Shown here piece by piece: positions 1-9,003 of a stretch of 9,003 bases of DNA; position 1 is the first letter of the stretch; the number at the start of each line of letters is the position of its first letter. The notes below the pieces were generated by a model. It was not told the origin of the DNA, ran no database searches, and was given only the letters and a program-made list of their open reading frames with translations. The stretch lies in IMG/VR virus record IMGVR_UViG_2667527608_000007; one strand, 5' to 3'. A program made the translations under genes and the position numbers. Source of the DNA: a virus (Duplodnaviria; Heunggongvirae; Uroviricota; Caudoviricetes).

Positions 1-84
1 TACAATCGTCAGCGTCGTCACTCTCGTCTGGGGAATATCTCCCCGGCAGCCTTCAGGGAAAAATATCATCAGATGGCTGCTTAA
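1..84 (+). CDS. IS3-family transposase (OrfB), C-terminal 27 codons only; 5' part lies outside the window
   Basis: Open frame from position 1 to TAA at 82-84; translation YNRQRRHSRLGNISPAAFREKYHQMAA. Confidence 0.6.
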   Translation, partial: YNRQRRHSRLGNISPAAFREKYHQMAA

Positions 85-127
85 AAAAAGAACAAATGGT
101 AGTGTCCGCTATTGCCAGTACACCTCA
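1..127 (+). mobile_element. Right end of an IS3-family insertion sequence (3' end of transposase gene plus terminal inverted repeat ending ...CACCTCA at 127); element continues to the left of the window
   Basis: Frame 1 translates as YNRQRRHSRLGNISPAAFREKYHQMAA*, the typical C-terminal tail of rve/DDE transposases of the IS3 family (HSxLGxxSPxxF). About 40 bp after the stop, GTGTCCGCTATTGCCAGTACACCTCA resembles an IS3-type terminal repeat ending in CA, as I recall it. No large ORF lies to the right for ~640 bp. Confidence 0.6.
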
Positions 128-772
128 AATACAGGGTTACTGATAGTGACACCAATTTCAAAACAACCTTCAGACGTATTAACGTTTGGTAATAACGTTT
201 CCATTATCGCGTCCTCAACAATGAATTTTGTGATGCAGTGCCTGGTGCCTCCAGGTGACGTTAACCAGTTAACAATTAACGCCGGATACAGAGAATCCAA
301 CCATAACACTGTTTTTGGTTTTAACTGTTCCGCGTGCGCTTAGCCGCATTCACCGCATCACAAAATTCACTTTAAAAAGGGCGGCAGAGCAGTCACGGAG
401 TAAAACTGATACCGCCAAACGTCACCAGAAAATTGATAACAGAGGGCGTTGCAGCGGGGTTGTCACTTAAGCGTATGGTCAACCTGACAACCCGGTGTCC
501 TCAACGGGGGAAGGAATAACCCCGCCATACTTACCGCCGCGCCATTTCGCGGATTGCCACAACCGGAAGCGCACGGTCGACGAAAATTTAACGACAGGCT
601 ATCTATGAACCAGCTACCTCGCCGTGCGCTTTCGCGTTATGGTCTGACTTTTCAGGGAAATATCCTTTCAGTAAACTGTCAGTGCCGGATGCTCACCCGT
701 GTCCGGCGCAAGCACTCCACCTCACCCGTGGAGAACTCCTTAATTACCAACCTTAGCTTCGTTGGTTAGCTA

Positions 773-991
773 TTAACGCGGGTATGTAATCATTCTGGCA
801 ATGGTTAATGCCGCTGCTTTTTCCAGATTGGTGATATCCTGCTCCAGAGAGGACAGATTTTCAGCCTGCTTAGCCCTGACTTCATTAGCCCATTTCAGAT
901 CCTGCGCTGCATTAATTTTCTGGTGCATCCACTCATAAAGTTCATCATTGGTATAGTCTGGCGCGATGATGACGGGTTCTCGTTTCTGCAT
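773..991 (-). CDS. Small hypothetical protein (72 aa) of the leftward early operon; function unknown
   Basis: ORF with a GAGGA ribosome-binding site 7 nt upstream of the ATG (minus strand, around 997-1001); same orientation and close packing with the two ORFs upstream of it. No family recognised. Confidence 0.5.
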   Translation of the reverse strand: MQKREPVIIAPDYTNDELYEWMHQKINAAQDLKWANEVRAKQAENLSSLEQDITNLEKAAALTIARMITYPR

Positions 992-1020
992 ACTGATTCC
1001 TCGCGGTGCTGTTTCGCTTA

Positions 1021-1149
1021 TCAGCCATTAGATTTTGCCGAACTGGAAAGCACCTGTTTAAATTCGTTGAAGCTGTGAGCTTCTTCGCCTTCGGCAAGGC
1101 CTTCGAAGTATTCTTCGTAAGCCTTTTCCATGATTGTGTCGAAATCCAT
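1021..1149 (-). CDS. Small acidic hypothetical protein (42 aa, MDFDTIMEKAYEEYFEGLAEGEEAHSFNEFKQVLSSSAKSNG)
   Basis: Not in the supplied ORF track (below its length cut-off). ATG at 1149..1147 follows a GGTGGG ribosome-binding site and sits 1 nt after the stop of the preceding ORF (TGA-T-ATG), suggesting translational coupling. Position is comparable to the small ydaG/ydaF genes of Rac, but identity is unverified. Confidence 0.4.
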   Translation of the reverse strand: MDFDTIMEKAYEEYFEGLAEGEEAHSFNEFKQVLSSSAKSNG

Positions 1150-1150
1150 A

Positions 1151-1387
1151 TCACCCACCTGAATTTCTTTCCAGCCAGCGACGCGCTCCAGATTCGGTTT
1201 TAAACGTTTTGCTTTTGGTATACGTCATTGCGGTGAACGTACCGTACTGGTTGGGGAACACGCCACATACCAGAGATTCGCTGTTGCCAAGATCGATAGT
1301 ATCCATGCTGACCTCATTTCCCCTTAACGCCGGGGTAGCGGAACAAAAACCTGCTGCATAGTTATTAAAGTTGAACCCTGCCGTCAT
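1151..1387 (-). CDS. Hypothetical protein (78 aa), first gene of the leftward early operon downstream of the PL-like promoter
   Basis: ORF begins about 95 nt downstream of the minus-strand promoter predicted at 1516..1488; weak GAGG upstream; stop abuts the next ORF's start. Confidence 0.45.
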   Translation of the reverse strand: MTAGFNFNNYAAGFCSATPALRGNEVSMDTIDLGNSESLVCGVFPNQYGTFTAMTYTKSKTFKTESGARRWLERNSGG

Positions 1388-1487
1388 GTTCTTACGCCTC
1401 GGGCTGGCTACTTAACCCGTGACCACTGCCTGGTAACTCGAGGTATTGCCCTGTATTGTGTGGGACGGGATGGGTTGGTATGGGAAA

Positions 1488-1555
1488 ACTATAGGAAATG
1501 CCTAATTACTTGTCAATAGGCTATGCCTAATAATTTGGGCGCAACCTAATAGGTG
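1488..1555 (-). promoter_or_regulatory. OL/PL-like region: leftward promoter (-35 TTGACA at 1516..1511, 17-bp spacer, -10 TATAGT at 1493..1488 on the minus strand) overlapped by repressor operator repeats
   Basis: ATAGGCTATGCCTAAT at 1516-1531 is the exact reverse complement of ATTAGGCATAGCCTAT at 2155-2170. Further half-site copies occur at 1491-1506 (ATAGGAAATGCCTAAT) and about 1546-1555 (CCTAATAGG). The promoter hexamers were read directly from the sequence. Confidence 0.6.
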
Positions 1556-1624
1556 ATGGTTTGTGGAAGAGGTAGTAGGAGTTAACTAACGGGAACTAGG
1601 AATTTCCCGTCGGACCATATAAGT

Positions 1625-2101
1625 TTAAGTTCCTGTCTTGGTGATGTTCTGGCTTTTCCGTTTTGATTCTTGATTTTTCAGATAGTTAGCTACCTTCATT
1701 TCCATTGCGGCAATGTAGGCGCGAACGTCATGATCAACCCAACTAGGCTCCGTAGCATTTCCAGATAAGATGAAAGCCACAATTGCTCTTTTTTCATCAG
1801 AGGCGGCTTGATAAAGGCTGTTTATGTCTAAAAGTTCACTTTTTGTATCTGAAGTGGATGGGGTTGGTATGGGGTATTCGTTAAGCCCCCAATGCTCTGG
1901 ACCAACCACATCAGAAAAGAAACGCCATAGTTCTGGAAGTTTGTCTTTACTTATCGAACCTTTCTTAATCCAGTCATGGATTGATGGTGGTTGGACTTTG
2001 AAATGACGTGCGATTTCCGCCTTTGATTTGACGGCTCCTGATGCAATTTTTTTGTTAATGGCCTGCTCTATCGCTCGGCCTAAGTCTTTACCACTAAGCA
2101 T
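1625..2101 (-). CDS. racR: CI-like prophage repressor with N-terminal helix-turn-helix (158 aa); resembles Rac prophage RacR
   Basis: N-terminal HTH segment (SKAEIARHFKVQPPSIHDWIKKG). Divergently oriented to a Cro-like gene and flanked on both sides by shared operator repeats. The 158-aa length and sequence match my recollection of E. coli RacR. The ORF is visibly more AT-rich than its neighbours. Confidence 0.75.
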   Translation of the reverse strand: MLSGKDLGRAIEQAINKKIASGAVKSKAEIARHFKVQPPSIHDWIKKGSISKDKLPELWRFFSDVVGPEHWGLNEYPIPTPSTSDTKSELLDINSLYQAASDEKRAIVAFILSGNATEPSWVDHDVRAYIAAMEMKVANYLKNQESKRKSQNITKTGT

Positions 2102-2126
2102 TGCTTAATAGTCTCCTATGCGCATC

Positions 2127-2198
2127 GCGTTAGGCAATCCCTACTCTCGATGTATTAGGCATAGCCTATTGACAATTTCATTAGGCTAAGCCTAATAT
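2127..2198 (+). promoter_or_regulatory. OR/PR-like region: rightward promoter (-35 TTGACA 2169-2174, 18-bp spacer, -10 TAATAT 2193-2198) with operators
   Basis: A perfect 17-bp palindrome ATTAGGCTAAGCCTAAT (2180-2196) lies between -35 and -10. An imperfect copy ATTAGGCATAGCCTAT is at 2155-2170 and a half-site GTTAGGCAAT near 2129-2138. Drives the Cro-like gene starting at 2226. Confidence 0.65.
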
Positions 2199-2225
2199 TG
2201 TTGCGTGTTTTTTGGAGTTCATTCG

Positions 2226-2549
2226 ATGAAAAAAGATAACTATTCATTCAAACGAGCTTGTGCTGTTGTCGGTGGGCAATCAGCAATGGCTAGGCTTTTA
2301 GGTGTATCTCCTCCAAGCGTAAATCAATGGATCAAAGGTGTACGTCAGTTACCTGCTGAGAGATGTCCTGCGATTGAACGAGCAACAAAAGGTGGTGTTC
2401 TGTGTGAAGAACTTCGTCCTGATGTTGATTGGACATACTTACGACGCTCGTCATGTTATTCGCAGAATATGTCGATGAAGCAACCAAATGACGAAAACGA
2501 TCATACCCGAAGCATCAAGAGGCAAATGATTCATGAAAATCAAACATGA
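2226..2549 (+). CDS. ydaS: Cro-like HTH transcriptional regulator (YdaS-like), 107 aa from ATG 2226
   Basis: GGAG ribosome-binding site at 2214-2217, 8 nt before ATG 2226. HTH segment QSAMARLLGVSPPSVNQWIKGVRQLP. The ORF track's start at 2205 is a GTG extension with no ribosome-binding site. The 3' end overlaps the next gene by 17 nt. Confidence 0.7.
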   Translation: MKKDNYSFKRACAVVGGQSAMARLLGVSPPSVNQWIKGVRQLPAERCPAIERATKGGVLCEELRPDVDWTYLRRSSCYSQNMSMKQPNDENDHTRSIKRQMIHENQT

Positions 2550-2958
2550 GCACATCCGCATGGCGATGAATGCCTGGGCATACCCTGATGGTGAGAAAGT
2601 TCCTGCAGCTGAAATAGCCCGGACTTATTTCGAACTGGGGATGACGTTCCCTGAACTGTACGACGACAGCCATCCGGAAGCCCTGGCCCGTAATACCCAG
2701 AAAATTTTCCGTTGGCTGGATAAAGACACCCCTGATGCTGTTGAAAAAATGCAGGCTCTGTTACCGGCGATCGAAAAGGCGATGCCGCCTTTGCTGGTGG
2801 CCCGTATGCGCAGCCACAGTTCTGAATATTACCGTGAGATCGTCGAACGGAGGGATCGGCTGGTGAAGGATGTCGATGATTTTGTTGCGTCAGCGGTTGT
2901 TTTGTATGACCAGATGAATCGCGGCGGCCCGGCAGGGAATGCTGTGGTGATGCACTAA
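2533..2958 (+). CDS. ydaT: YdaT-like protein (141 aa), partner of the Cro-like gene; CII-like regulator role is an inference
   Basis: AAGAGG upstream of ATG 2533. Size, position and sequence resemble Rac YdaT. Co-directional with and overlapping the Cro-like gene. Confidence 0.6.
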   Translation: MKIKHEHIRMAMNAWAYPDGEKVPAAEIARTYFELGMTFPELYDDSHPEALARNTQKIFRWLDKDTPDAVEKMQALLPAIEKAMPPLLVARMRSHSSEYYREIVERRDRLVKDVDDFVASAVVLYDQMNRGGPAGNAVVMH

Positions 2959-2980
2959 AAGCACGGTGTTCGGGGGTTTT

Positions 2981-3943
2981 ATGAGCAGCAAGCTTCATGG
3001 TCTTGTCTGGGAAGGGTGCGCCTTCACCGGCATGATCTTATCCAGGGTGGCGGTTATGGCCCGTCTTGCAGACTACAGCAATGACGAGGGCGTGTCATGG
3101 CCTGCCATTGAAACTATCCGGCGTCAGATCGGTGCAAGAAGTGAATCCACAGTGAAATCGGCTATTGCAGAACTGGCGAAAGAGGGCTGGCTGACGAAGG
3201 AAGAGCGTAAGGTCGGTGGGCGTAATGTAAGCAATATCTATCGGCTTAATGTGGAAAAACTCGAAGCAGCTGCGGCGGCGGCGCGTGAGTCATATAAACC
3301 GAAAAGAAAAATTAGCCCGGCAAAAAATGACCCGTTAACAGTTGACCCGTCAAATATTGACCCCTCAACGGTTGACCCGTCAAATTTTGATGGATCAACT
3401 GTTGATAAAAAACTGCCGATTAGGGGGGCGATGATTGACCCCGATCCGTCAGTATTAAAACCTGATCCGTCAGATAAAAGATCTTCTTGTCCGGACGCTT
3501 CGCAACCGGACCCGCAGACGGCTGAACAGGATTTTTTAACCCGACACCCTGACGCGGTTGTGTTCAGTGCGAAAAAACGCCAGTGGGGAAGTCAGGAAGA
3601 TTTGGTGTGCGCACAGTGGATCTGGGGACGAATCGTGAGTCTTTACGAGCAGGCGGCCAGCGATGATGGCGAGATCACTAGACCGAAAGAACCCAACTGG
3701 ACAGCATGGGCCAATGACGTTCGCACAATGCGGATGCTGGATGGCAGAACTCACAGACAAATTTGTGAAATGTTTGGGCGTCTCCAGCGGGATTCGTTCT
3801 GGGTAAAAAACATCATGAGTCCGGCAAAACTCCGGGAAAAATGGGATGAACTGGTTATCCGCCTGGGGCGTTCGCCTGCGCAGCGTTGCGTGAATCACAT
3901 TTCTGAACCGGACACTGAAATACCGCCGGGATTCAGGGGGTGA
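2981..3943 (+). CDS. Lambda-O-like replication initiator (320 aa from ATG 2981): winged-helix N-terminal domain, repetitive linker, C-terminal domain
   Basis: N-terminal HTH/winged-helix region (ARLADYSNDEGVSWPAIETIRRQIGARSESTVKSAIAELAKEGWL). The linker DPLTVDPSNIDPSTVDPSNFDGSTVD is encoded by the tandem 15-bp iterons. Lies immediately upstream of the DnaC-like loader. The ORF track's 2966 start is a GTG extension. Confidence 0.7.
   Translation: MSSKLHGLVWEGCAFTGMILSRVAVMARLADYSNDEGVSWPAIETIRRQIGARSESTVKSAIAELAKEGWLTKEERKVGGRNVSNIYRLNVEKLEAAAAAARESYKPKRKISPAKNDPLTVDPSNIDPSTVDPSNFDGSTVDKKLPIRGAMIDPDPSVLKPDPSDKRSSCPDASQPDPQTAEQDFLTRHPDAVVFSAKKRQWGSQEDLVCAQWIWGRIVSLYEQAASDDGEITRPKEPNWTAWANDVRTMRMLDGRTHRQICEMFGRLQRDSFWVKNIMSPAKLREKWDELVIRLGRSPAQRCVNHISEPDTEIPPGFRG
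3328..3417. repeat. Tandem 15-bp iterons (about 6 copies, consensus TTGACCCGTCAAnnn), putative prophage origin of replication inside the initiator gene
   Basis: Copies start at 3328 (ATGACCCGTTAACAG), 3343 (TTGACCCGTCAAATA), 3358 (TTGACCCCTCAACGG), 3373 (TTGACCCGTCAAATT), 3388 (TTGATGGATCAACTG) and 3403 (TTGATAAAAAACTGC). Degenerate GAYCCGTCAG copies follow at about 3436-3475. Each core TGACCCGTCA is internally near-palindromic. Confidence 0.7.
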
Positions 3944-3949
3944 CGTGTC

Positions 3950-4690
3950 ATGAAAAACATTGCGGCAGTTGGGGTTCTTGAACGTATTCGCAGACTTGCA
4001 CCACAGGGGGCGGTTCCACCGTACCGGACGGTGGAGGAGTGGCGGGAATGGCAACTTGCTGAAGGACGAAAACGCAGCGAGGAGATTAACCGCCTGAATC
4101 ATCAGGTGCGGGTTGAAAAAATCCTGAACCGTGCGGGCATCCAGCCGCTTCACAGGAAGTGCTCATTCGGGAACTACCGGGTGCAGAACGACGGTCAGCG
4201 CCATGCTCTGAGCCAGGCGAAATCCATTGCCGATGAATTGATGACCGGATGTACAAACTTCGTGTTCAGCGGTAAACCTGGTACCGGTAAAAATCACCTG
4301 GCAGCAGCGATTGGCAATCGGCTGATGGCGAAGGGGAGAAGCGTGATTATCGTCACCGTGTCCGATGTCATGAGCGTGTTGCATGACGGCTACGACAACG
4401 GCCAGTCCGGGGAAAAATTTTTACAGGAGCTTTGTGGAGTTGACCTTCTGGTCCTTGATGAAATTGGCATGCAGCGGGATACGCGCAACGAGCAGGTCAC
4501 GCTGAACCAGATAGTCGACCGCAGAACGGCTTCGATGCGTAGTGTCGGAATGCTGACGAACCTGAATCACGCAGCGATGAGCACACTCCTCGGAGATCGG
4601 GTGATGGACCGTATGACCATGAATGGTGGTCGTTGGGTGAATTTTAACTGGGAGAGCTGGCGGTCAAACGTTGGACGTCAGGGTATGTGA
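3950..4690 (+). CDS. DnaC/IstB-like AAA+ helicase loader (246 aa); YdaV-like
   Basis: Walker A-like GKPGTGKNHLAAAIG and Walker B LLVLDEIG. Start is 7 nt after the initiator stop, with GGGGG upstream. Typical replication-module partner. Confidence 0.85.
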   Translation: MKNIAAVGVLERIRRLAPQGAVPPYRTVEEWREWQLAEGRKRSEEINRLNHQVRVEKILNRAGIQPLHRKCSFGNYRVQNDGQRHALSQAKSIADELMTGCTNFVFSGKPGTGKNHLAAAIGNRLMAKGRSVIIVTVSDVMSVLHDGYDNGQSGEKFLQELCGVDLLVLDEIGMQRDTRNEQVTLNQIVDRRTASMRSVGMLTNLNHAAMSTLLGDRVMDRMTMNGGRWVNFNWESWRSNVGRQGM

Positions 4691-4715
4691 GAATTTTTGA
4701 CGAGGTAAATTTTCG

Positions 4716-5486
4716 ATGGAAACTGTATTGCATGCACTGAAAGCGATGGGAAAAGCCAATTCTGTTGAACTGGCGGCGCGGCTTGATATCAGCCGTGAAG
4801 AAGTTCTTAACGAACTGTGGGAACTCAAAAAAAATGGCGTTGTTGATAAAACGGGTCACACCTGGTTTCTGGCTGTCGAAGGTGAAGCCGGGGTAACCGA
4901 AGGGCAGGCACTACAACCTGAAGCGCCGGATGTGGTAACCGAAGAGGTCGCTCCAAAAGTTACCGCAGACATGATGGTTGAGTTTATCGGTCAGGATGGT
5001 GCTAAAACGTGTGAGGAACTGGCGGGTAAGTTCGGCGTCAGTACTCGCAAGGTTGCTTCCACGCTGGCGGTGGTAACCGCAACGGGGCGGCTGGCACGCG
5101 TTAATCAGAACGGTAAATTTCGTTACTGCATGTCGGGGGGTAATTTACCAGCAGATCCGAAAGCCGCGCCGGTAACGAAAAATGATGGTAAGGCCTTTCC
5201 TCAGCCAGCAGGTGCTGCGTTACCAGTCCGGGAAGCCGCAACACAGGAAGAAATTAAAACAGAAACTGTGGCGGACATTGTGCAGCCGTTGCTATCGTTT
5301 ACCGAAACGCAAGCAGATGAGCTGATTTTTCCGTCCCTGCGCAGGGCAAACCTGGCGCTGCGCAGGGCGAAAAGTGATGTTCAGAAGTGGGAGCGAGTCT
5401 GCGCCGCGCTGCGGGAGCTGAACAAGCACCGGGATATTGTTCGACAGATTACTGATTCTTCCCGCCGTGTTGTATCGGAAAAGTGA
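4716..5486 (+). CDS. Hypothetical prophage protein with two winged-helix-like repeats (256 aa; DUF1627-like)
   Basis: Two similar HTH-like segments (ANSVELAARLDISREEVLNELWELKKNGVV and KTCEELAGKFGVSTRKVASTLAVVTATGRLARV); GAGG ribosome-binding site upstream. Confidence 0.6.
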   Translation: METVLHALKAMGKANSVELAARLDISREEVLNELWELKKNGVVDKTGHTWFLAVEGEAGVTEGQALQPEAPDVVTEEVAPKVTADMMVEFIGQDGAKTCEELAGKFGVSTRKVASTLAVVTATGRLARVNQNGKFRYCMSGGNLPADPKAAPVTKNDGKAFPQPAGAALPVREAATQEEIKTETVADIVQPLLSFTETQADELIFPSLRRANLALRRAKSDVQKWERVCAALRELNKHRDIVRQITDSSRRVVSEK

Positions 5487-5501
5487 TAGCCGGAGGCGCT
5501 T

Positions 5502-5897
5502 ATGGCGAAACCTTTTACACACGAACAGCGTGAAGAACTGAAGGCCCGAATTATCGGGCTGGTACGCAAAAATGAACGCATGACGATATCACAACTGGAG
5601 AGAGCGACGGGAGCAGGCTGGCATTCAGTCAGACGTTGCCTTGTGGATGTACTGGCTTGTGGCGATTTATACATGCCCGGTAAATACGGTGTTTTTACAT
5701 CAGAACAGGTGTATCGCGTATGGCGTAAGGCAGCGGAGAAAGCAACCGACCAGACATTGATTCGAAAGTTACCAGACGGAGAAATACGCCGCTACGACAG
5801 ACAACAGAACATAATCTGTGGCGAGTGCCGGAAGAGTGAAGTTATGCTGCGTGTACTGGCGTTCTATCAGGGCAATTTTCAGGAGGCGGTACTGTGA
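5502..5897 (+). CDS. Hypothetical protein (131 aa), possible HTH near the N-terminus
   Basis: Intact ORF tightly packed with its neighbours (stop overlaps the next start, GTGA); segment MTISQLERATGAGWHSVRRCL looks HTH-like. No family recognised with confidence. Confidence 0.5.
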   Translation: MAKPFTHEQREELKARIIGLVRKNERMTISQLERATGAGWHSVRRCLVDVLACGDLYMPGKYGVFTSEQVYRVWRKAAEKATDQTLIRKLPDGEIRRYDRQQNIICGECRKSEVMLRVLAFYQGNFQEAVL

Positions 5898-6538
5898 GTG
5901 AATTAGCTATCAGGCTTCAATTGTCGCTGGCATTCGCATCAAAGGAGAATGAGATGATCACTTTTACAAAAGAGCAGTTAATCAGTCATGTTAGTGAAAA
6001 TGTAAAGGCGATGAAATTTGCAGTAAAACAGACAGTATTCAAAAATTCTCTCGAGGCAATTGAGTTGGATTTAGCACTGGCCCTTGTTGCTCAGGCTTCG
6101 CTGGAAGCAGAGCCCGTGCTTTATATGAATCGATTTACCGGAAAGACATTCTCACTGGAAGAGCAACCCGGTGCTGATAAGGAACCGGAAATATACGTGC
6201 CGCTATATGCTGCCCCGCCAGACAGCGCCGCCATGCTTCAGGCTGGAAACTTTCGGGAAAATAAGGGTTCGTCAACCAATAATTTTCGGGAAATCTCGGA
6301 AACGTCAACCAACTATCCGGTAACTCCGGATGGTTGGATAAGCTGTAGTGAGCGAATGCCGGATGATGGTCAGCACGTAATTATTTTATGTGATGGCGCA
6401 TTCGTTCTTTATGCGCAATATCGAGACGGTGAGTTTTTTGATGTAGTCCGTAATGGTGATGAATTTTTCGAAACACAGAGCCGCAATGTAACCGACTGGA
6501 TGCCGCTACCAGAACCGCCGCAGGAGGTGCGCCAATGA
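5894..6538 (+). CDS. Hypothetical prophage protein with C-terminal DUF551-like domain (214 aa from GTG 5894; alternative ATG at 5954)
   Basis: C-terminal segment DGWISCSERMPDDG...TDWMPLPEPP is typical of DUF551 phage proteins. AGGAGG at 5881-5886 precedes GTG 5894; AAGGAG precedes ATG 5954. Confidence 0.6.
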   Translation: MSELAIRLQLSLAFASKENEMITFTKEQLISHVSENVKAMKFAVKQTVFKNSLEAIELDLALALVAQASLEAEPVLYMNRFTGKTFSLEEQPGADKEPEIYVPLYAAPPDSAAMLQAGNFRENKGSSTNNFREISETSTNYPVTPDGWISCSERMPDDGQHVIILCDGAFVLYAQYRDGEFFDVVRNGDEFFETQSRNVTDWMPLPEPPQEVRQ

Positions 6539-6618
6539 TCTGGCCTGAAGCCTTTGCAATTACAGGCGTTGCTATAGCTATTGATTTTTTAGTATATGTT
6601 ATTTGTCGGTGGGGGTAA
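6535..6618 (+). CDS. Micro-ORF, 27 aa predicted single-TM peptide (MIWPEAFAITGVAIAIDFLVYVICRWG)
   Basis: Perfect AGGAGG at 6522-6527, 7 nt before the ATG, which overlaps the upstream stop (ATGA). Hydrophobic core of about 18 residues. Below the ORF-track cut-off. Confidence 0.4.
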   Translation: MIWPEAFAITGVAIAIDFLVYVICRWG

Positions 6619-6653
6619 AAACGTTCGCCGGGATTCACACCAAAGGAGGGAAT

Positions 6654-6758
6654 ATGTCGGATGATATTTCACTGGCAATGGAAGGTGCTCTGGCTGTTAT
6701 TGCTGTTGTGGGCGTTTACTGCCTGGTTGTGTTTTTGATGGATCGACTAGGGAACTGA
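6654..6758 (+). CDS. Micro-ORF, 34 aa predicted single-TM peptide (MSDDISLAMEGALAVIAVVGVYCLVVFLMDRLGN)
   Basis: AAAGGAGGG at 6642-6650 immediately upstream of the ATG; about 22 consecutive hydrophobic residues; below the ORF-track cut-off. Confidence 0.45.
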   Translation: MSDDISLAMEGALAVIAVVGVYCLVVFLMDRLGN

Positions 6759-6766
6759 ATTCATTA

Positions 6767-6788
6767 CGATATGGGAATTCCCATATCG
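6767..6788. promoter_or_regulatory. 22-bp perfect palindrome CGATATGGGAATTCCCATATCG, 13 bp upstream of the predicted hok promoter -35
   Basis: Exact dyad symmetry read from the sequence; no T-tract follows, so it is not a classical intrinsic terminator. Confidence 0.5.
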
Positions 6789-6800
6789 GGTAAAAACGGT

Positions 6801-6828
6801 TTGCGGTAAAGCGAGAGTTAAGTAGAAT
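6801..6828 (+). promoter_or_regulatory. Putative promoter of the mok/hok mRNA (-35 TTGCGG 6801-6806, 16-bp spacer, -10 TAGAAT 6823-6828)
   Basis: It sits just upstream of the 5' element (6833-6846) that is complementary to the mRNA 3' end, giving a transcript of about 420 nt ending at the terminator at 7254. Confidence 0.45.
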
Positions 6829-6889
6829 TGCTGCGGGTGCTTGAGGCTGTCTGCCTCGGGCATGCCACCGTAAGGCAGACAGAGAAAAG

Positions 6890-6955
6890 CCCCAGTTAAC
6901 ATTACGCGTCCTGCAAGACGCCTAACATTAATCTGAGGCCAATTTCATGCTAGAC
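6890..6955 (-). ncRNA. Putative Sok-like antisense RNA overlapping the mok translation-initiation region (predicted from a promoter only)
   Basis: Minus-strand -35 TTGCCT (6990..6985), 17-bp spacer, -10 TAACCT (6967..6962) would start a transcript antisense to the mok ribosome-binding site (GAGG 6934-6937) and start codon (6947). The 3' end is not defined. Confidence 0.25.
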
Positions 6956-7159
6956 ATATGTAGGTTAGCCTCTTACGCGCCGAAAGGCAAGGAGAAGCAG
7001 GCTATGAAGCAGCAAAAGGCGATGTTAATCGCCCTGATCGTCATCTGTATCACCGTCATAGTGACGGCACTGGTAACGAGGAAAGACCTCTGCGAGGTAC
7101 GAATCCGAACCGGCCAGACGGAGGTCGCTGTCTTCACAGCTTACGAACCTGAGGAGTAA
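6947..7159 (+). CDS. mok: Mok-like reading frame (70 aa), in frame with and containing hok
   Basis: MLDICRLASYAPKGKEKQAMKQQ... closely parallels my recollection of E. coli MokC (MLNTCRVPLTDRKVKEKRAMKQH...), where mok is an in-frame N-terminal extension of hok. GAGG ribosome-binding site 9 nt upstream. Confidence 0.6.
   Translation: MLDICRLASYAPKGKEKQAMKQQKAMLIALIVICITVIVTALVTRKDLCEVRIRTGQTEVAVFTAYEPEE
7004..7159 (+). CDS. hok: Hok/Gef-family type I toxin (51 aa)
   Basis: MKQQKAMLIALIVICITVIVTALVTRKDLCEVRIRTGQTEVAVFTAYEPEE is near-identical to my recollection of HokC/Gef and HokD/RelF. AAGGAG ribosome-binding site at 6988-6993; single TM helix; conserved Cys and the RTGQTEVAVF motif. Confidence 0.9.
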   Translation: MKQQKAMLIALIVICITVIVTALVTRKDLCEVRIRTGQTEVAVFTAYEPEE

Positions 7160-7228
7160 GAGACCCGGCGAGGGAGAAATCCCTCGCCACCTCTGATGAA
7201 TCAGGCATCCTCAACGCACCCGCACTTA

Positions 7229-7254
7229 ACCCGCTTCGGCGGGTTTTGTTTTTT
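7229..7254 (+). terminator. Rho-independent terminator of the hok transcript (stem ACCCGC/GCGGGT with TTCG loop, then T-run)
   Basis: ACCCGCTTCGGCGGGTTTTGTTTTTT read directly. An additional perfect 9-bp hairpin with GAAA loop (GGCGAGGGA-GAAA-TCCCTCGCC) lies at 7167-7188, just after the hok stop. Confidence 0.7.
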
Positions 7255-7326
7255 CCTGGCATTCTGGTTTACAATTCGCACGCCAGCCTGAACAACTGGC
7301 ACCTGCTGCGCCAGCAGAGACAACCG

Positions 7327-7605
7327 ATGGCGCACGATACCAAATTATACAATTCTGATGATTCTGCCGTCTTTGCCAGCAGGCGCGGACGGTGTTTTCA
7401 CGCATTCAAATCTGACTGGTACCAGCATCCCCCATGCACTGAAGAACAGGCCGAATGGCTCATTCAGTGTTACCGCAGGCGCGGATGCGAGGTTAAAAAA
7501 GCCCTTAGCCTCGACTACCGTCACTGGATAATCTCCGTCAGGCTCCCTTACTCCGAACGGCCACCGCGTCCGTCCCGCACATTCCAGCAACGGATCTGGA
7601 GGTAA
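7327..7605 (+). CDS. Small Cys-rich hypothetical protein (92 aa from ATG 7327), in the position occupied by rem in the Qin prophage
   Basis: ORF downstream of the hok terminator. The track's 7246 start would overlap the terminator T-run, so ATG 7327 is preferred. Four cysteines (C-x15-C-x10-C-x6-C). Weak ribosome-binding site. Confidence 0.45.
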   Translation: MAHDTKLYNSDDSAVFASRRGRCFHAFKSDWYQHPPCTEEQAEWLIQCYRRRGCEVKKALSLDYRHWIISVRLPYSERPPRPSRTFQQRIWR

Positions 7606-7606
7606 T

Positions 7607-8656
7607 GTGCGGGTATTACTTCGACCTGTTCTGGTACCGGAACTCGGTCTGGTTATCGTTAAGCCAGGCCGTGAATCAATGTCAGCATTCCATAACGGCA
7701 GAATACTGGTGGAGCCGGAACCAAAAAGCATGCGAGCTCTGCCGTCCGGGGTTGTACCTGCCGTTCACCAGCCGCTGGCGGAAGATAAATCACTACTGCC
7801 ATTTTTCAGCGATGAGCGGGTGAGCCGTGCTGCGGGTGGCGCTGGTGCACTGTCTGACTGGTTATTACGTCACGTGAAATCCTGCCAGTGGCTACACGGT
7901 GATTATCATCACAGCGAAACCGTCATTCACCGTTACGGTACCGGCGCAATGGTGTTGTGCTGGCACTGCGACAACCAGTTGCGTGACCAGACATCCGAAT
8001 CACTCGAGCAACTTGCTCATCAAAACCTGTCAGCATGGATGATTGACGTCATCGGTCACGCAATAAGCGGTACGCAGGAGCGTGAATTATCTCTGGCTGA
8101 ATTATCCTGGTGGGCGGTCCGCAATCAGGTGGCGGACGCGCTACCGGAAGCGGTATTACGTCGTTCGCTGGGGTTGCGTGCGGAAAAAATCCGCTCCATG
8201 TACCGTGAAAGCGACATCGTACCGGGAGAGCAGACCGCCACCAGCATACTGAAACAGCGCACAAAAAATCTTGCGCCGCTGCCTCACGCCCACCAGCAAC
8301 AGAACCCACCACAGGAAAAGACGGTGGTCAGCATTGCCGTTGATCCTGAGTCTCCGGAATCTTTCATGAAACGACCTAAACGTCGCCGCTGGGTTAACGA
8401 GAAATACACTCGCTGGGTGAAGACACAGCCGTGTGCGTGTTGTGGTAAGCCAGCCGACGATCCCCATCACCTGATTGGTCATGGTCAGGGCGGAATGGGG
8501 ACAAAATCTCACGATATTTTCACGCTACCGCTGTGTCGGGAGCATCACAACGAGCTTCATGCGGATCCGCTGGCGTTCGAAGAAAAGCATGGTTCTCAGG
8601 TTGATTTAATTTTTCGTTTTCTTGATCACGCCTTTGCAACTGGCGTGCTTGGGTAA
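7607..8656 (+). CDS. ydfU: DUF968/YdfU-like prophage protein with C-terminal HNH-like Cys/His motif (349 aa from GTG 7607)
   Basis: C-terminal CACCGKPADDPHHLIGHGQGGMGTKSHDIFTLPLCREHHNELH. Size matches Qin YdfU as I recall it. GGAGG lies only 4 nt upstream of the GTG, so the start is uncertain (alternative ATG at 7679). Confidence 0.65.
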   Translation: MRVLLRPVLVPELGLVIVKPGRESMSAFHNGRILVEPEPKSMRALPSGVVPAVHQPLAEDKSLLPFFSDERVSRAAGGAGALSDWLLRHVKSCQWLHGDYHHSETVIHRYGTGAMVLCWHCDNQLRDQTSESLEQLAHQNLSAWMIDVIGHAISGTQERELSLAELSWWAVRNQVADALPEAVLRRSLGLRAEKIRSMYRESDIVPGEQTATSILKQRTKNLAPLPHAHQQQNPPQEKTVVSIAVDPESPESFMKRPKRRRWVNEKYTRWVKTQPCACCGKPADDPHHLIGHGQGGMGTKSHDIFTLPLCREHHNELHADPLAFEEKHGSQVDLIFRFLDHAFATGVLG

Positions 8657-8668
8657 AAGAGGTGACTG

Positions 8669-9003
8669 ATGCTCATAGATTTGGTTTTACCTTACCCGCC
8701 GACGGTGAACACTTACTGGCGACGCCGTGGCAGCACATATTTTATCTCGGAGGAGGGAAAGCGTTATCGCCGGGCTGTGGCGCTTATTGTTCGCCAGCAG
8801 CGGCTGAAATTAAGCCTGTCCGGAAGGCTGGCGATAAAGATTATTGCCGAGCCACCGGATAAGCGCCGCCGTGACTTGGACAATATTCTGAAAGCGCCGC
8901 TGGATGCGCTGACGCATGCGGGGTTGCTAATGGACGATGAGCAGTTTGATGAAATCAATATCGTTCGTGCTCAGCCAGTATCTGGTGGACGTCTGGGGGT
9001 GAA
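8669..9003 (+). CDS. rusA: RusA-family Holliday-junction resolvase, N-terminal 111 codons; 3' end beyond the window
   Basis: MLIDLVLPYPPTVNTYWRRRGSTYFISEEGKRYRRAVALIVRQQ...PPDKRRRDLDNILKAPLDALTHAGLLMDDEQFDEINIVRAQPVSGGRLGV carries the RusA hallmark segments. The frame stays open to the window end and was verified codon by codon. The track's 8662..8862 ORF is in another frame. Confidence 0.85.
   Translation, partial: MLIDLVLPYPPTVNTYWRRRGSTYFISEEGKRYRRAVALIVRQQRLKLSLSGRLAIKIIAEPPDKRRRDLDNILKAPLDALTHAGLLMDDEQFDEINIVRAQPVSGGRLGV

Follow-up and report, generated by a model that had tools for sequence, protein, structure and literature searches.

The stretch of DNA analysed (9,003 nucleotides, hereafter the window) was, over bases 127-9003, a 100% match to a prophage located beside potC in E. 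coli O103:H2 12009, and to other prophages, and its bases 1400-2600 were found at 100% identity in many E. coli chromosomes, in which the repressor gene is annotated as racR (RefSeq). The order of genes was that of a lambdoid early region (int-xis-exo ... PL/OL-repressor-OR/PR-cro-cII-O-P-...-Q), with genes for integrase, excisionase and exonuclease, dicB and ydfC to the left of the immunity region, and genes for a replication initiator, a DnaC-like loader, RusA and a Q-type antiterminator to its right. The early-left operon ran from a DUF1391 gene through ydfC, the DicF RNA (379-430) and dicB towards the exonuclease gene, xis and int. The region between the two arms corresponds to the already known RacR/YdaS/YdaT repressor switch of Rac-type lambda-like E. 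coli prophages, with the ydaS-ydaT pair divergent from racR and in the expected order and orientation.

The gene racR (1625..2101, minus strand) encodes a prophage repressor of 158 aa with an N-terminal lambda-repressor-like helix-turn-helix and a helical C-terminal domain; the protein was 91% identical to K-12 RacR over 158 aa and scored 246 bits against a cut-off of 200 for the NCBIfam RacR equivalog NF049929. No Pfam family matched the repressor and a PDB sequence search returned nothing significant, and the term 'CI-like', used in a preliminary description of the sequence, was therefore tested by fold. Only the N-terminal domain was found to be lambda-repressor-like, the C-terminal part being modelled as helices, so that the term is apt for the DNA-binding fold but not for the remainder of the protein, in which the Pfam scan detected no S24 peptidase (self-cleavage) domain. 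Given a helical C-terminal part with no S24 match, induction by RecA-stimulated self-cleavage would not be expected. Relatives sharing the RacR N-terminal domain do carry S24 (PF00717) C-terminal domains, and across the family of relatives, of which 224 proteins were collected, the first 73 residues were nearly invariant while the C-terminal part was variable.

To the right of racR, ydaS (2226..2549, plus strand) encodes the Cro analogue (107 aa), which matched Pfam YdaS_toxin (PF15943, 3.8e-30) and P22_Cro (1e-8) and was 85% identical to K-12 YdaS. It is followed by ydaT (2533..2958, plus strand; 141 aa), the CII analogue, whose product matched Pfam YdaT_toxin (PF06254, 2.8e-10) and PDB entry 8bt1 (E 3e-89), was near-identical to the YdaT of CP-933P and showed only 31% identity to that of K-12. 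The ydaT start codon is spanned by a YdaT box (ATGATTCATGAAAATCAA, 2526..2543) identical at 18/18 positions to the box footprinted in K-12, where YdaT, a CII-like activator, binds ATGATTCATGAAAATCAA at the start of ydaT and stimulates a reverse promoter in ydaS (PMC11879457); the structure of YdaT has been solved, and the protein is a DNA-binding activator (PMC9986795, PMC11879457). A counterpart of PracR4 (the PRE analogue) was placed at 2316..2348 on the minus strand (-10 TACGCT, 2321..2316; -35 CTGACG, 2348..2343) by transfer of the hexamer positions from K-12 (PMC11879457). Its -35 differs in the first base from that of K-12 (TTGACG), and the 21-bp spacer makes the assignment of the hexamers uncertain.

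A search of the window for ATTAGGC-N3-GCCTAAT with at most three mismatches gave seven sites where 0.31 were expected, a number that no shuffle out of 200 attained. All seven were confined to a left cluster of three (1490-1550) and a right cluster of four (2093-2196), with the repressor gene between them. The preliminary description had the same dyad on both sides of the gene, which was borne out by the sites with no mismatch at 2180-2196 and one at 1515-1531, but its count of two sites was too low. In the left cluster, OL1 (1490..1506, TATAGGA-AAT-GCCTAAT, three mismatches) is an operator as judged by sequence and lies over the -10 of the leftward promoter PL, and OL2 (1515..1531, AATAGGC-TAT-GCCTAAT, one mismatch) abuts and overlaps its -35. 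The third site, OL3 (1534..1550, TTTGGGC-GCA-ACCTAAT, three mismatches), is a weak operator-like site held with lower confidence, since it was present in K-12 and E. ruysiae and missing from more distant relatives. The right cluster consists of a site over the racR start codon (2093..2109, ACTAAGC-ATT-GCTTAAT, three mismatches), a weak operator at 2129..2145 (GTTAGGC-AAT-CCCTACT, three mismatches), OR2 (2154..2170, ATTAGGC-ATA-GCCTATT, one mismatch), which abuts the -35 of the rightward promoter PR, and OR1 (2180..2196, ATTAGGC-TAA-GCCTAAT, no mismatch), which lies over its -10. The start-codon site is identical in sequence in K-12, where it is the RacR site named O3 in a 2022 paper (PMC9638921), and the site at 2129..2145 is the homologue of a family-wide middle operator that carries the PR -35 in other genera. 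The four right-hand sites thus match the (A/T)TAGGC-N3-GCCTA(A/T) operators published for the space between racR and ydaS, including the copy that covers the racR ATG (PMC9638921, PMC11014345). Neighbouring sites were spaced by 25-26 bp, except for OL2-OL3 (19 bp) and the start-codon site (36 bp). A perfect 23-bp inverted repeat (1510-1532 and 2153-2175, 100% complementary) makes OR2 with its -35 a perfect reverse-complement copy of the OL2 unit, and the left and right operator-plus-(-35) units are therefore copies of each other.

The two promoters of the preliminary description were recovered as stated, both by direct reading and by a consensus scan. The predicted promoter PL (1488..1516, minus strand) has its -35 TTGACA at 1516..1511, a 17-bp spacer and its -10 TATAGT at 1493..1488; it was the best sigma-70 match in the window (11/12 consensus positions), with a predicted transcription start at about 1481. 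PR (PydaST; 2169..2198, plus strand, TTGACA-18-TAATAT) matched 10/12 positions and is identical in hexamers and spacing to the PydaST mapped in K-12. Promoter-like matches were no more numerous than in shuffles (only seven in 9 kb), and it is their quality and placement that set PL and PR, the top two, apart. The perfect dyad does lie within PR, as had been described, but not strictly between the hexamers, for it starts 5 bp past the -35 and runs four bases into the -10. The -10 elements of racR mapped in K-12 bear substitutions in the window (for example, GAGAAT to GAGACT). A hairpin at about 1588-1611 on the minus strand, after the racR stop, folded only modestly better than shuffles (z = -1.8), the terminator scan made no call there, and it is not claimed as a terminator.

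The GC content of 1488-2198 was 0.421, compared with 0.502 for the whole window, which places it in the lowest 1% of windows of the same size and agrees with the earlier remark that the repressor region is AT-richer. Alignment of the window to K-12 Rac was limited to 1319-2556 (86% DNA identity), coinciding with the GC trough, and the junction of the K-12-like segment falls just after the YdaT box, the next gene being a ydaT of the CP-933P type. These boundaries support the suggestion that the immunity cassette is a separately acquired mosaic module.

Much of the right-hand side has been characterised in K-12. The 123-bp racR-ydaS intergenic region holds GCCTAA/TTAGGC repeats to which RacR binds, as determined by EMSA (three complexes), thermal shift and ChIP-qPCR (PMC5700373), and DNase I footprinting has defined operators O1-O3, the half-site ATTAGGC and repeats of the form (T/A)TAGGC-n3-GCCTA(T/A), with one repeat lying on the racR ATG (PMC9638921). 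In these footprints the region corresponding to OR1 was protected at the lowest RacR concentration, and weak sites were filled at higher concentrations. Primer extension and -10 mutagenesis have mapped one promoter for ydaS-ydaT (TTGACA/TAATAT) and three for racR (PMC9638921), PydaST being abolished by mutation of its -10 (PMC9638921, PMC11879457), and repression of transcription by RacR has been recorded with reporters (PMC5700373, PMC9638921). All of the published K-12 right-hand elements were found in the window's allele, the right half of which is accordingly an allele of a characterised system. This half of the switch, as proposed in the preliminary description, has thus been demonstrated for the K-12 orthologue (PMC5700373, PMC9638921, PMC11879457), including the assignment of the rightward promoter to the Cro-like gene, which is ydaS. 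K-12 YdaS represses its own expression and is reported not to repress racR (PMC9638921); the lambda-like bistability of the preliminary description is for that reason conjectural. That description did not identify the region as the RacR system, and the 'complete cis-architecture' that it read from the sequence contains both operator-promoter sets but omitted racR's own promoters and the YdaT-dependent reverse promoter.

For the left-hand side, the Rac papers searched gave no description of operators or of a promoter downstream of racR, a literature search on the operator motif yielded nothing relevant, and the 2022 operator paper (PMC9638921) mentions neither ydaG, ydaF, kilR or sieB nor the word 'leftward'. 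The RacR regulon, including the 'ydaFG' operon, has been termed uncharacterised (PMC11014345), and leftward genes are reported to rise 40- to 100-fold upon RacR depletion (PMC6765115; bioRxiv 10.64898/2026.09.06.749655). The same three left sites and the same leftward promoter were present in K-12. Among 5,426 complete E. coli genomes, about 1,086 carried the OL-to-OR segment nearly whole; 1097 matched the 791-bp left-to-right segment, and the 1086 that covered at least 80% of it show that the left cluster travels with racR. Two main alleles of the segment were distinguished, one about 98-100% identical to the window and the other, of the K-12 type, about 86%. A collection of phages contained a single record with this immunity region (87% identity), which makes for thin evidence of its working in active phages.

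Alongside the 224 RacR relatives, 28 genomic loci were collected, of which 26 were scanned. Nearly all 26 had sites at about -68, -43 and -8 from the repressor start codon (for the -8 site, half of the sequence is also constrained by coding), and an extra site, at -95, was found in these data in Escherichia-type loci only. Downstream of the repressor gene, 12 of the 26 loci contained two sites, spaced by 24-25 bp, that were fused to a TTGACA and a -10, giving, together with the window, 13 OL modules that range from Enterobacterales to Betaproteobacteria (Mixta, Morganella, Proteus and Erwinia to Achromobacter, Burkholderia, Pigmentiphaga and Hydrogenophaga). The pair was located at +550 to +620 where the repressor was RacR-sized, and at +1170 to +2560 where it was a long S24-type protein followed by cargo genes. 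The aligned cassette reads ATTAGGC-N3-GCCTAT followed directly by TGACA-N3/4-ATTAGGC-N3-GCCTAATAT, with the near-consensus -35 and -10 kept in register with both sites throughout and the placement of OL1 relative to the -10 constant in 13/13 modules. Over these modules the majority-base frequency of the half-sites was 0.97 (OL2) and 0.90 (OL1), whereas the N3 spacers gave 0.64 and 0.46, respectively, and the flanks 0.51-0.54. Similarly, when the window was compared with K-12, differences were seen at 5 of the 98 positions within half-sites but at 18 of the 81 outside them (Fisher p = 0.0012). Half-sites conserved amid drifting spacers and flanks are hard to reconcile with a decaying duplicate, and the left promoter-operator cassette has the pattern expected of a working operator-promoter unit; conservation over the 13 loci, a comparison of sequences, thereby supports the left half of the switch as well. 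Mechanical ORF calls near the left promoter in the distant loci were on mixed strands, with GC-rich shadow ORFs and, in three loci, a short flank.

The locus is therefore very probably the immunity (lysogeny-maintenance) module of a Rac-type lambdoid prophage, comprising, as had been described, a repressor gene, a divergent Cro-like gene and operator clusters over strong divergent promoters on both sides, and operating as follows. RacR dimers would recognise pairs of ATTAGGC half-sites in inverted orientation, separated by 3 bp. Occupancy of OR1 and OR2 would cover the -10 and -35 of the very strong PR and silence ydaS, ydaT and the replication genes, and occupancy of OL1 and OL2 would probably do likewise at the -10 and -35 of the equally strong PL, silencing the early-left operon. 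With both hexamers of each outward promoter covered by strong sites, bound RacR should turn off the two early operons, although binding of RacR at OL and activity of PL are here predicted from the sequence. At higher RacR levels the weaker sites at 2129-2145 and 2093-2109, which lie over the racR promoters and start codon, would fill and give negative autoregulation, while YdaT at its box (2526-2543) would boost the reverse promoter inside ydaS, which is directed at racR. A RacR octamer might also bridge OL and OR over about 640 bp, a proposal modelled on lambda and CP-933P. Since the left operon holds the DicF RNA and dicB, RacR would in addition keep division inhibitors silent.

Three other explanations of the locus were weighed against this immunity module. 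RacR might act only at the right intergenic region, with the left repeats being a non-functional relic of duplication and the leftward genes being expressed by read-through from racR when Rho fails. The 23-bp perfect inverted repeat does indicate that sequence has been exchanged between the two sides, and several points have been counted against the left-operator case, namely the three mismatches in each of OL1 and OL3, a published octamer model in which four dimers are satisfied by the four right-hand repeats and OL is not needed (PMC11014345), and the published view that kil is expressed by transcription running on from the racR promoter, which a Rho-dependent terminator inside racR holds in check to keep kil silent, and not from a distinct PL (PMC4150792). 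A relic would, however, hardly retain half-sites at 0.90-0.97 from Proteus to Achromobacter while its 3-bp spacers and flanks drift, nor a near-consensus -35 and -10 always in register with two sites, and where cargo genes follow the repressor gene, as in locus L013, the cassette lies beyond them; this explanation is considered very unlikely. Still more improbable, to the point of being nearly dismissible, is a toxin-repressor or atypical toxin-antitoxin cassette in which RacR neutralises YdaS and YdaT and no phage lysis-lysogeny switch exists. The Pfam family names YdaS_toxin and YdaT_toxin suggest such a function, and in K-12 racR is essential unless ydaS and ydaT are deleted, over-expression of ydaS/ydaT being toxic (PMC5700373, PMC5700377). 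Yet the genes are arranged as in a lambdoid early region, the opposite operon has an operator-promoter set of its own that would control it, YdaT is a DNA-binding activator resembling CII whose structure is solved (PMC9986795, PMC11879457), the same module was found in a phage record, and Jobling's critique makes the same argument (PMC5917428). The toxin-antitoxin reading was rejected on gene context and the second operator set.

The remaining alternative accepts the sites and promoters as described and questions the two-state behaviour, the module being a one-way silencer with neither Cro-type counter-repression of racR nor SOS-triggered inactivation. This is unlikely on balance but deserves to be taken seriously, given that YdaS did not repress racR in K-12 reporter assays (PMC9638921) and that RacR has no S24 match, whereas relatives with the same N-terminal domain have S24. 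On the other hand, excision of Rac is promoted when YdaS is over-produced, an effect expected of Cro-type antagonism (PMC11014345), bistability has been demonstrated for the related CP-933P module (PMC8630535), and the layout of operators over the racR promoters would permit competition.

Taking the locus as an immunity module, its closest known counterpart is racR-ydaS-ydaT of K-12 Rac (b1356-b1358), with which it shares, besides RacR, YdaS and the DNA of 1319-2556 at the identities given above, the ATTAGGC half-site, four right and three left sites, the hexamers and spacing of PydaST and the YdaT box. The two differ in the type of ydaT, in the spacer bases of OR1 and OR2 and in the early-left operon, which is Qin-like in the window (ydfC, DicF, dicB) and ydaG-ydaF-kilR in K-12 Rac. 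In the dicA-dicC/dicB region of Qin, ydfC, the DicF RNA and dicB likewise lie in the early-left operon downstream of the repressor gene. There a prophage repressor keeps cell-division inhibitors silent, as proposed for the window, but that repressor is DicA instead of RacR and the operators differ. The paaR2/ydaS-ydaT module of CP-933P (O157:H7) has the same general layout, with operators to either side of the repressor operon, YdaS and YdaT as partners and a repressor that forms octamers and has no SOS-cleavable domain; its PR, PRM and PL promoters and OL1-3 operators have been described (PMC8630535). It differs in its operator repeat (published consensus GTTTAGTAA palindromes) and in the toxin-antitoxin pair between the repressor gene and PL. 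With lambda cI-cro the window shares, as far as sequence layout can tell, a repressor gene bracketed by operator clusters over divergent strong early promoters, 17-bp dyad operators 25-26 bp apart and a site for a CII-type activator at the start of the cII-analogue gene. In contrast to lambda, HMMER detected no similarity of the repressor to CI, the C-terminal domain is helical instead of the S24 peptidase domain of CI, there are four right-hand sites instead of three, about 640 bp instead of lambda's about 2.3 kb (PMC2685085) separate left from right, and Cro-type repression of the repressor promoter is unseen in K-12.

The design is a textbook one and has been dissected in E. coli K-12, so that the window adds no new kind of system; what the comparison probably adds to the known Rac work is a modest increment, a left operator and promoter with deep conservation. 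Such an operator would explain the rise of kilR, ydaE/F/G, racC and recET on RacR loss, and in the window's prophage it would place DicF and DicB under RacR control. It also allows the RacR octamer to be interpreted in another way. The protein is eluted as an octamer, for which 'four inverted repeats' are cited (PMC11014345), the word 'loop' is absent from the main text of that paper, and a limited literature search found no OL-OR looping proposal for Rac. Tentatively, and with somewhat less than even confidence, it is proposed that the octamer bridges OL1-OL2 and OR1-OR2 by a loop of about 640 bp, and that the cassette, together with the DNA-binding domain of 73 residues, constitutes a portable specificity unit of ancient origin. 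If so, bridging would tighten repression of both early promoters, shape racR autoregulation and reinterpret the published model of four dimers on four intergenic repeats, and the unit would be common to phages of Gamma- and Betaproteobacteria, paired with either an SOS-cleavable S24 or the non-cleavable RacR C-terminal domain. As a single type of DNA-binding domain, with the same operators, is found attached to two unrelated kinds of C-terminal domain, the family provides a natural comparison of how induction signals are wired to one operator specificity. In the source of the window itself, dicB is interrupted by the end of an IS600 at about base 126, and the left operon is thus damaged.

Right-hand operators were compared between window positions 2129-2175 and the upstream regions of L007-L030 (genomic loci of RacR relatives). 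In other genera, the -35 element of the rightward promoter PR is carried directly by the middle operator (TTAGGCAATTCCTA), giving three right-hand sites. In Escherichia, the middle operator (CCCTACTCTCG) has lost this -35, and an additional 26-bp unit, identical to the left-hand OL2-plus-(-35) segment, lies between the middle operator and OR1. From this sequence comparison, PR looks as if a copy of the leftward promoter had served to rebuild it.

The DNA-binding domain of RacR (residues 1-73, identity up to 86%) was also found in fusions with a LexA-like S24 peptidase domain (P0101, P0102 and P0114 among the relatives' proteins, and positions 2501-3601 of locus L013), for example in proteins of 235 amino acids (Pectobacterium and others) and 366 amino acids (Achromobacter). 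The same operators were present on both flanks of the S24-type repressor locus, as examined in the DNA of L013. Downstream of PR, a mosaic junction with the K-12 Rac prophage was located approximately 13 bp past the YdaT box (window 2526-2560). All 18 bases of the box are shared with K-12, yet the YdaT encoded after it belongs to the CP-933P type and has just 31% identity to its K-12 counterpart. A K-12-identical box ahead of a CP-933P-type YdaT fits the published cross-reactivity of CP-933P-type and K-12 YdaT proteins on this box.

On the left side, an exact 13-bp direct repeat (GGGTTGGTATGGG) was observed at 1472-1484, in the predicted leader of the leftward promoter PL directly past the -10, and at 1861-1873, within racR, where it corresponds to minus-strand codons for PIPT. 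The transcribed strand of the predicted leader (about 1400-1480) is rich in C and poor in G, a base composition reminiscent of a Rho loading site. A perfect 11-bp palindrome (ACCTAATAGGT; 1544-1554), with the same sequence in K-12, overlaps OL3, a weak operator, in its right half. The palindrome may represent a pair of overlapping half-sites or be bound by another protein.

Within the early-left operon, a full-length gene for the antisense RNA DicF (379-430, minus strand; Rfam RF00039, scoring 76.7 bits with the gathering threshold at 48) is positioned with ydfC on one side and dicB on the other, and DicF would here answer to RacR and PL, not to DicA. Approximately the first 126 bp of the window (1-126) are foreign to the prophage and show a 98-99% match to the end of copies of IS600, an element of the IS3 family. 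This insertion leaves dicB truncated, with a reading frame of 31 codons (METLLPNVNTSEGCFEIGVTISNPVFEVYWQ*). The O103:H2 prophage, identical in other respects, has dicB intact.

A hok/sok type I toxin-antitoxin locus (6835-7009, plus strand; Rfam sok RF01794, 114 bits), with a hokD ORF around 7004-7159 (RefSeq annotation hokD), is flanked by a DUF551 gene and a DUF968 gene. A racR gene, its product having 91% identity to the window RacR, was also observed on a contig of 5.2 kb (L005, JARKOR010000130.1) from a metagenome bin assigned to 'Candidatus Nanosynbacter'; most likely this contig is E. coli DNA that contaminated the bin.
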